The translations under genes were made by a program, and so were the position numbers. Positions 21,891 to 23,463 of a stretch of 64,000 bases of DNA are shown here, piece by piece. Every line of letters begins with the position of its first letter. The stretch's first letter is position 1. The notes below the pieces were generated by a model. It searched no databases, was not told where the DNA came from, and was given only the letters and a program-made list of their open reading frames with translations. Source of the DNA: Escherichia coli (GTDB lineage: Bacteria; Pseudomonadota; Gammaproteobacteria; Enterobacterales; Enterobacteriaceae); the NCBI RefSeq assembly GCF_044647545.1, contig NZ_CP172818.1; one strand, 5' to 3'.

Positions 21891-22151
21891 CCTTTTACCC
21901 TTAATATTTAACAATACTAAACATTTAGCGCATAAATTTCACATATCCTTTTTCGGATATATTCATATGGTCGCATAATAACGGAACAATTATATGATTT
22001 TGATCATAATGAAAAAGAATGCCTGATATTAATGAAATTTTCTCATAGAAAGAGAAGCGGAATTAACATCTTGCATAGCAGGGAAAAATAAAAACCGAAG
22101 CCTGCTACAACTTCGGTTTCTTGATTAAGGCAGTAAATTAAGCAGCGGTTT

Positions 22152-22805
22152 TCAGCTGGCTTTACGCTCATGTGCCTGACGGTATGCCACCAGGTCTTCA
22201 ATAGTCACGAGCGCCATATTGTGTTTATTGGCAAACTCAATGCACTCTGGTGCACGCGCCATCGTGCCATCGTCATTAGTCAGCTCACACAGCACACCAG
22301 CCGGTTTAAAGCCTGCCAGCGTCATTAGATCAATAGTTGCTTCAGTATGGCCGCCACGCGTCAGTACTCCACCTGCCTGCGCGCGAAGTGGGAAAACGTG
22401 GCCCGGGCGATTCAGATCAGAAGGTTTTGCGTCATCGGCAATCGCTGCGCGAACGGTCGTAATACGGTCAGCGGCAGAAACACCGGTAGTCACACCTTCA
22501 GCCGCTTCAATGGTCACGGTAAAACCGGTGCCATAGGCGCTGGTGTTATTTTCTACCATCATTGGCAGATCGAGTTGTTTACGGCGATCTTCAGTAATGC
22601 ACAGGCAAACAATACCGCTACCGTGGCGAATGGTCAGCGCCATCTGCTCAACGGTCATGGTTTCTGCCGGGAAGATCATATCGCCTTCGTTTTCACGGTC
22701 TTCATCATCAAGCACCATTACACCGCGTCCTTCACGCAGCGCAGCCAGTGCATTTTCAACACGTTCGAAAGGCGTACCAAAAGAGGAAAGTAGCGTCTGA
22801 TTCAT
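22152..22805 (-). CDS. ribB: 3,4-dihydroxy-2-butanone 4-phosphate synthase
   Basis: 217-aa ORF; matches RibB. Confidence 0.95.
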
Positions 22806-23060
22806 GGTAAAAAAACCTCACTAAAATTATGGTTACCAGAATCAGGGCAGTCTTAGGAGTGGCGGCATATAGCCAAAATAACGTGAGCGGGTCCATGCCC
22901 GACAGAATCGTTACTCTCTCCCATCCGGACTCTAACCGTCGGCCCCGGAATTACACCGGATCTGCTGTCCTTTGAGTTCGCACCCAAAGCGCTCGCGGGC
23001 TTTCAACTGAGTTGATTTACCGCCGGTGGGGAATTTCGCCCCGCCCTGAGAATAAGCGGA
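22806..23060 (-). promoter_or_regulatory. ribB leader containing FMN riboswitch (RFN element; sroG region)
   Basis: Minus-strand leader contains the conserved RFN segments ...agggcggggcgaaattccccaccggcggtaaa...agcccgcgagcg...ccgacggttagagtccggatgggagagagt... directly upstream of ribB. Confidence 0.7.
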
Positions 23061-23178
23061 TTCACTATAACGCTAATGATTAGCGGCAGCAACGCATAGC
23101 TTCACATAATTCTGGTTTATGACTTACCCTTATCGCACTACAATGGCACTCAACACCTATCAGTACAGGGAAACTACA

Positions 23179-23463
23179 ATGATTGACCCGAAAAAAATTG
23201 AGCAAATCGCTCGCCAGGTTCACGAATCAATGCCTAAAGGAATCAGGGAGTTCGGGGAAGATGTGGAGAAAAAAATCCGCCAAACCCTACAAGCGCAGCT
23301 GACGCGTCTCGATCTGGTAAGCCGCGAAGAATTCGACGTTCAGACGCAAGTCCTGTTACGGACTCGTGAAAAACTGGCGTTACTGGAGCAGCGCATCAGT
23401 GAACTGGATTTGAAAAAACCAACACAAAAACGGGCCAGACGGCCCGTAATATCAGTGTTCTAA
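23179..23463 (+). CDS. ubiK: Ubiquinone biosynthesis accessory factor UbiK (YqiC, BMFP coiled-coil family)
   Basis: 94-aa product from ATG 23179 ([16 protein letters not shown]...), SD caggga upstream; the 114-aa frame is an upstream extension. Confidence 0.8.

Follow-up and report, generated by a model that had tools for sequence, protein, structure and literature searches.

The leader of ribB in an Escherichia coli genome carries the known FMN riboswitch: architecture, conservation and competing helices

The ribB locus

The window, that is, the whole stretch of Escherichia coli DNA that was analyzed, spans 64,000 nucleotides of contig NZ_CP172818.1. The open reading frame at 22152-22805 on its minus strand encodes a protein of 217 amino acids that matches the ribB model TIGR00506 with 287.7 bits, well above the cutoff of 177.45. 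Downstream of ribB lie yqiD and zupT, and upstream of it lie the divergent ubiK as well as glgS, yqiJ, and yqiK. Several complete E. coli chromosomes match the stretch from 22100 to 23250 with 100% identity, and it was found in 5,425 of 5,426 complete genomes. The first-pass annotation, made from the sequence alone, had assigned the interval 22806-23060 to the leader of ribB, and this interval equals the whole 5′ untranslated region (UTR) (nt 1 to 252 of the transcript) plus 3 nt of the promoter, with the aptamer proper taking up 149 nt. The main features of the locus are as follows, where nt denotes the published transcript numbering explained below.

23087..23092, minus strand: putative −35 hexamer TTGCTG (TTGCCG in most relatives, kept as TTGCyG in alignment A1)
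23064..23069, minus strand: putative −10 hexamer TATAGT (near-invariant across ~60 genera and species in alignment A1)
22909..23057, minus strand: FMN aptamer, nt 1-149 (RF00050, RefSeq, pair counts)
22152..22805, minus strand: ribB coding sequence, 3,4-dihydroxy-2-butanone-4-phosphate synthase, 217 amino acids (TIGR00506, RefSeq)
22090..22121, minus strand: intrinsic terminator-like hairpin and T-run after ribB (terminator scan, 13-pair stem followed by ATTTTTCC)

The region over the ribB stop codon and the terminator hairpin also gave a sub-threshold match to STnc240, an enterobacterial sRNA family (22083-22153, minus strand; 29.1 bits, gathering score of 55, E value of 0.29). Since this match is carried mostly by the terminator stem, it is probably due to chance.

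On the plus strand, RefSeq starts ubiK at 23179, so the divergent control region between ribB and ubiK measures only 121 bp (23058-23178). A mechanical open reading frame of 114 amino acids begins at an upstream in-frame ATG at 23119, thereby taking in 23119-23178 (plus strand), and the UbiK profile match begins at residue 21 of this frame. At the 3′ end of ubiK, the trinucleotide TTT at 23409-23411 (plus strand) replaces 64 nt of NZ_CP033850, a record otherwise identical to the window there, for a net loss of 61 nt. This deletion removes the last ~23 residues of UbiK (..ELEARNNSVADLQSPPAIPPIDKAE), and the frame (ATG at 23179, end of the open reading frame at 23463) reads through into an altered tail that overlaps the glgS stop codon and terminator. 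The deletion junction was not found at high identity among complete E. coli genomes (1 of 5,426, at 87.3%), and the 64-nt segment is present in 1,102 of the 5,426. Either this allele is private or the assembly is wrong at this point.

Identity of the leader element

A covariance scan of the 6-kb neighborhood with Rfam 15 matched the FMN riboswitch family RF00050 to 22909-23057 on the minus strand, with 120.9 bits (gathering score, 66.2) and an E value of 1e-28. The alignment is untruncated, spanning model positions 1 to 138 of 138, and all helices and junction motifs are present. The aptamer and ribB share a strand, with 103 nt between the 3′ end of the aptamer and the AUG. Matches to AdoCbl-II (22.3 bits, inside the aptamer) and snoZ105 fell far under their gathering scores and were taken as chance. 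In a 100%-identical E. coli record, the RefSeq feature “FMN riboswitch” maps to 22909-23057, exactly the interval returned by the covariance scan. The 252-nt leader is at least 99% identical in 4,958 complete E. coli genomes, always under a “riboswitch” feature, and compared with another E. coli allele (L002) it shows two loop differences, one in the loop of P3 and one in the loop of hairpin HP2.

The four conserved motifs that had been quoted in the first-pass annotation are all on the minus strand at the place claimed, and for three of them this is the sole occurrence in the 64-kb window. Their order fits the aptamer, except that the 3′-most motif had been named first.

23026-23016, minus strand: ccggcggtaaa, nt 32-42
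23001-22990, minus strand: agcccgcgagcg, nt 57-68
22942-22935, minus strand: ccgacggt, nt 116-123
22926-22913, minus strand: ggatgggagagagt, nt 132-145

The proposal of an FMN aptamer in the ribB leader is thus borne out, and the RF00050 scan of the minus strand that had been suggested as its check is strongly positive. The RF00050 score, the RefSeq feature, the ribB gene identified downstream by TIGR00506, and the base-for-base fit to the published numbering together identify the element, and no evidence speaks against the identification. It is almost certainly the FMN riboswitch of E. coli ribB, also known under the name sroG, which acts in cis as an OFF switch from within the 252-nt 5′ UTR by preventing translation initiation and making the leader accessible to Rho. 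This riboswitch is already known, annotated, and experimentally characterized, and its recovery here adds no new knowledge of it. It is a textbook regulator, a target of antibiotics (ribocil and roseoflavin), and a model of cotranscriptional and Rho-dependent control, and genome pipelines annotate it as routine. The locus instead provides a calibration point, as a reader with the sequence alone placed the riboswitch, its strand, and its extent correctly.

Numbering and parts of the leader

The published numbering could be anchored on the window through the anti*-P1 helix. The helix AGAGUAACG/CGUUAUUUU found independently by ViennaRNA is the published anti*-P1 (nt 141-149/175-183; PMC11571811), which fixes +1 at window position 23057 and gives the conversion window = 23058 − nt. 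On this scale, the bases named in the literature fit the window, namely, C175, G176, U181, the AUG at 253, the pauses at 175 and 247, and the probes 137, 184, and 218. Transcription would start at this position from the putative promoter listed above, in which the two hexamers are separated by 17 nt and the −10 hexamer sits 6 nt before +1. A simple sigma-70 scan missed this promoter because its −35 hexamer fits the consensus at only three of six positions, and its placement comes from conservation.

The aptamer comprises six helices, and the expression platform spans nt 150 to 252. Within the platform and the first codons of ribB, segments were found that can pair with each other or with the aptamer.

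nt 3-10/140-147: aptamer P1
nt 17-19/27-29: aptamer P2
nt 35-38/60-63, distal part 43-47/51-55: aptamer P3
nt 66-68/92-94, distal part 69-75/82-88: aptamer P4
nt 98-102/110-114: aptamer P5
nt 120-122/130-132: aptamer P6
22888..22901, minus strand: linker hairpin HP1, nt 157-170, CGGG-loop-CCCG (compensatory changes)
22875..22883, minus strand: anti*-P1 3′ strand, nt 175-183, CGUUAUUUU (ViennaRNA minimum free energy [MFE] fold, PMC11571811)
22854..22859, minus strand: CUCCUA, nt 199-204, complement of the aptamer-core UGGGAG at nt 135-140 (constrained and unconstrained folds)
22842..22850, minus strand: probable anti-P1 3′ strand, nt 208-216, CUGCCCUGA (pairability, MFE fold of nascent RNA)
22828..22897, minus strand: C-rich, G-poor candidate rut region, nt ~161-230 (composition profile)
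22797..22845, minus strand: sequestering stem-loop, nt 213-261 (every fold, pair counts)
22816-22819, minus strand: Shine-Dalgarno GAGG, nt 239-242, in a weak inner helix of the sequestering-stem loop
22803-22805, minus strand: AUG of ribB, nt 253-255, inside the sequestering stem

The pause reported at nt 175 (window 22883; PMC11571811) comes just after HP1. In the FMN-free state, the partner of the anti*-P1 3′ strand is nt 141-149 (22909-22917, AGAGUAACG), the 3′ strand of P1, and that of the anti-P1 3′ strand is nt 9-17 (UCAGGGCGG, 23041-23049). The concept of anti-P1 is published (PMC11571811), and its exact pairs, reconstructed here from complementarity, are probable ones. The sequestering stem has 13 bp and a bulged U254, with its 5′ arm at nt 213-225 (22833-22845) and its 3′ arm at nt 248-261 (22797-22810). 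Because nt 208-216 overlap the 5′ arm, anti-P1 and the sequestering stem are mutually exclusive.

Comparison across enterobacterial leaders

A RibB protein search with one genome per species returned 80 enterobacterial loci, 78 of which include the upstream region. Sequence landmarks of both aptamer halves are present upstream of ribB in all 78, and RF00050 was found upstream of ribB in 20 of 20 loci of a first scan, each time at an equal distance, and in 2 of 7 loci of a later one. Pairing was evaluated on alignment A2, which covers +1 to AUG+30 in 70 distinct leaders and was made with mapped transcript ends; it replaced alignment A1, where four leaders with long insertions had been misaligned.

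The FMN-bound (OFF) structure, consisting of the aptamer, two linker hairpins, and the sequestering stem, forms standard pairs in 95.6% of the cells of the 70-leader alignment, compared with 38.9 to 52.4% when the partners are slid by 1 to 3 columns. Compensatory changes occur at 13 pairs, and 0 or 1 of 500 shuffles reached the observed values on five measures. These changes are mainly in distal P3, distal P4, and HP1; HP2 and the inner helix of the sequestering loop have one each. P1, P2, P3, P5, P6, and the distal parts of P3 and P4 are 99 to 100% paired across the orthologues; basal P4 is 66.7% paired, its third pair being noncanonical in 70 of 70 leaders, as flagged in the Rfam alignment. 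HP1 is 93.9% paired, with compensatory changes at all four of its pairs.

The platform also contains the alternatives to P1, with anti*-P1 and anti-P1 excluding P1 and the sequestering stem, and 94 to 100% of the cells of these helices are pairable. The sequestering stem is paired in 100% of cells, with 12 of its 13 pairs invariant and an A216G change that gives a G-U pair. Anti-P1 is likewise 100% pairable, and its variable positions are compatible with pairing (U209C gives G-C and A216G gives U-G), while in anti*-P1 94.5% of cells are pairable and every change is one-sided. No compensatory changes were found among the 70 leaders in the sequestering stem, anti-P1, or anti*-P1. Because nt 199-266 are almost invariant, the comparison neither proves nor contradicts these switching helices.

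Insertions in the loop of P3

The distal P3 loop, of about 10 nt in E. coli, measures 130 to 132 nt in five relatives, where it forms an imperfect palindrome. The five loci (L022, L023, L029, L032, and L033) belong to Phytobacter diazotrophicus, a Pseudocitrobacter metagenome-assembled genome, Kluyvera genomosp. 3, K. ascorbata, and a record titled “C. freundii M-21,” and the insert lies at approximately locus positions 860 to 1000, between GGCGGTAAATC and GAAAGCCCGCGAGCG. In L029 it folds as one long imperfect hairpin of −55.5 kcal/mol. The inserts resemble ERIC elements, with the ERIC2/ERIC1R primer motifs matching at 12 to 16 of 22 positions in four of the five loci (15 to 16 in L029); L032 has neither motif. 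Although neither aptamer half is disrupted, RF00050 gave no match at the gathering threshold in these five loci, whose riboswitches are therefore probably overlooked by automated annotation. Shorter forms of 59 to 65 nt occupy the P3 site in L017 and L018 (Salmonella enterica subsp. diarizonae and arizonae), L019, and L035. Those of L019 and L035 share end sequences with the long ERIC-like form, and they fold as hairpins. In these four aptamers, RF00050 is still found, with 106 to 110 bits over 199 to 206 nt.

Folding energies

The unconstrained MFE structure of nt 1-282 computed with ViennaRNA has −88.1 kcal/mol and holds both anti*-P1 and the sequestering stem. Forcing anti-P1 together with anti*-P1 as a model of the FMN-free state gave −82.7 kcal/mol for the same segment. 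When the aptamer helices were forced, the energy, which contains no ligand or tertiary terms, was −78.4 kcal/mol, and the sequestering stem formed spontaneously. This stem appears in every fold with its 13 bp and one bulged U, and the pairing of UGGGAG with CUCCUA appears in the ligand-free folds. Compared with shuffled sequence, the whole leader shows no extra stability (z = −0.15); as riboswitches have folds that compete with one another, this does not speak against structure.

Nearest-neighbor energies without ligand or tertiary terms thus do not favor the aptamer fold, and the ligand-free full-length MFE structure retains the sequestering stem, so that thermodynamics alone does not reproduce the ON state. 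That equilibrium energies do not reproduce the switch is consistent with the published view of a decision taken during transcription. For nascent RNA exposed up to nt 235, as when the polymerase stands at the nt-247 pause, the MFE structure holds anti-P1, and this modeled fold agrees with the published poor FMN binding of complexes paused at 247 (PMC11571811).

Mechanism and alternative explanations

The published mechanism fits the sequence of this leader exactly; the identity, architecture, and conservation of the element and the pairing potential of all helices are documented above. Transcription would start at about window position 23057 from the putative TTGCTG-17-TATAGT promoter, and nt 1-149 fold into the six-helix FMN aptamer. 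FMN bound during transcription locks P1 (nt 3-10/140-147), leaving nt 213-225 free to pair with nt 248-261. The resulting 13-bp sequestering stem buries the AUG and holds the Shine-Dalgarno sequence in its loop helix, blocking translation initiation, and in this FMN-bound state the C-rich platform segment would be opened to Rho, leading to termination in the leader or in early ribB. If little FMN is present, nt 175-183 instead capture the 3′ strand of P1 (anti*-P1), and nt 208-216 probably capture aptamer nt 9-17 (anti-P1). Together, these two helices dismantle P1 and consume the 5′ arm of the sequestering stem, which leaves the ribosome-binding site accessible and allows ribB expression.

Several of these steps come from experiments published for this sequence. 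FMN binding has been reported with a Kswitch of 176 ± 19 nM at probe 137 and of 57 to 206 nM at other probes (PMC11571811). On nascent transcripts, FMN shields from RNase H the 3′ strand of P1 (176 nM) and, with a Kswitch of 206 nM, the sequestering stem on its 5′ side, where nt 218-227 are protected; it makes nt 184-193 more accessible (PMC11571811). Mutations of C175 and G176 that weaken anti*-P1 change FMN sensing (Eschbach et al. 2024, PMC11571811), and transcription pauses at nt 175 and nt 247 (PMC11571811). Deletion of the riboswitch, named sroG in that study, derepresses riboflavin production (PMC9885008). Chromatin immunoprecipitation shows that Rho controls the occupancy of ribB by RNA polymerase, with a Rho termination score of 3.1 and loss of the effect in rho R66S (PMC5499598), and in a purified system a riboswitch ligand increases Rho-dependent termination on the ribB leader (PMC10085680). 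A rut site and termination sites have been placed in the expression platform (PMC11571811; PMC5499598; PMC10085680). The composition profile shows that the C/G ratio reaches 2.0 within nt ~161-230, which is compatible with rut and makes this segment a candidate region for it.

How Rho enters is the point on which another reading carries the most weight. The switch could be essentially translational, with Rho acting indirectly on the bare, untranslated ribB mRNA rather than through direct gating of a rut site. No other feature of the platform is as strong or as conserved as the stem around the AUG, indirect control by Rho has been described for thiM (PMC5499598), and the C-rich stretch runs on into early ribB (nt 251-290, C/G ratio of 2.0), all of which would suit such a route. 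Direct gating of rut has, however, been attributed to ribB specifically (PMC5499598, Fig. 7A), and ligand-dependent Rho termination has been obtained without ribosomes in a purified system (PMC10085680). Because the latter is already reported, a purely translational switch is rather unlikely, and this route survives only as a contributing one. Attenuation by an intrinsic terminator of the Bacillus subtilis ribD type is very improbable. HP1 is rich in G+C and a U-run follows downstream at nt 180-183 (up to 7 U in relatives), but the two are 9 nt apart, the U-run belongs to the 3′ strand of anti*-P1, and the control described is translational and Rho dependent (PMC11571811). The terminator scan returned no terminator-like site between the aptamer and the AUG (22806-22908), and on this ground the intrinsic-terminator reading was rejected.

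Two further readings would give the leader RNA a role other than that of a cis-acting switch. The terminated or processed fragment (SroG, approximately the aptamer) might also act in trans, as a small RNA (sRNA) or as an FMN sponge. The sRNA name sroG remains in use for the element, which reportedly first came to light when an sRNA screen by Vogel and colleagues in 2003 turned up a stable fragment of ~150 nt, and termination by Rho or at a pause site would release such a fragment. Stable aptamer fragments are, however, a common by-product of riboswitch attenuation, and the literature examined on the ribB riboswitch gives no evidence for a target in trans, which makes a second function of this kind improbable. 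The least credible alternative, to which we attach next to no weight, is a leader peptide whose translation would mediate the regulation. Two mechanical open reading frames on the minus strand, at 22756-22896 and 22853-22987, overlap the leader, but only 20 and 18 of the 70 orthologous leaders, respectively, retain their start codons, their frames are broken by indels, and they start inside structured helices or loops of the riboswitch. Both frames were rejected as unconserved, and the earlier statement that no open reading frame explains the leader holds.

The invariant segment of the platform

In the segment from nt 199 to 266, most positions are identical in 70 of 70 leaders, with loop positions 232-233, 237, and 243-247 being 69 to 93% conserved. 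The invariant stretch takes in the first codons of ribB and an apparently unpaired “linker,” CUCCUAAGAC, in a set where RibB protein identity goes down to ~90%, and the hairpins just upstream of it (nt 150-198) vary freely. Part of the invariance of nt 199-261 is explained by complementarity to invariant segments of the aptamer. That the near-invariance of nt 199-266 reflects a constraint beyond the published helices is a tentative idea to which we give only a small chance. One possible source is the 6-bp pairing UGGGAG/CUCCUA (nt 135-140/199-204), which is 99.5% pairable across the 70 leaders with both strands invariant and no covariation, and which may link anti*-P1 with anti-P1 in a single extended structure of the FMN-free state. 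If this pairing is real, nearly all of the invariant nt 199-216 would be accounted for as the complement of invariant aptamer sequence. The invariance could also stem from a partner that recognizes the sequence, for instance Rho or a protein, or from a function in trans of the SroG fragment after its release.

Comparison with known systems

The element is the same as the E. coli K-12 ribB FMN riboswitch (sroG, RF00050), from which it differs in nothing of substance. With the RFN element of B. subtilis ribD (ribDEAHT) it shares the aptamer family, the ligand, the OFF logic, and the use of P1 as the switching helix. The two differ in their platforms, which in B. subtilis ribD is an intrinsic terminator/antiterminator (PMC11571811), whereas in ribB it combines sequestration of the start codon with Rho. 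The Mg2+-responsive leader of Salmonella enterica mgtA has been grouped with ribB as a case in which the conformation of the RNA directly gates a rut site (PMC5499598; PMC10085680), although it responds to another ligand, has an unrelated fold, and shows no sequence relationship. The TPP riboswitches of E. coli thiM and thiC are likewise translational, with anti-P1 helices, pauses near the start codon, and an involvement of Rho (PMC11571811; PMC5499598). They belong to a different aptamer class from ribB, and in thiM Rho acts indirectly, after the inhibition of translation (PMC5499598).
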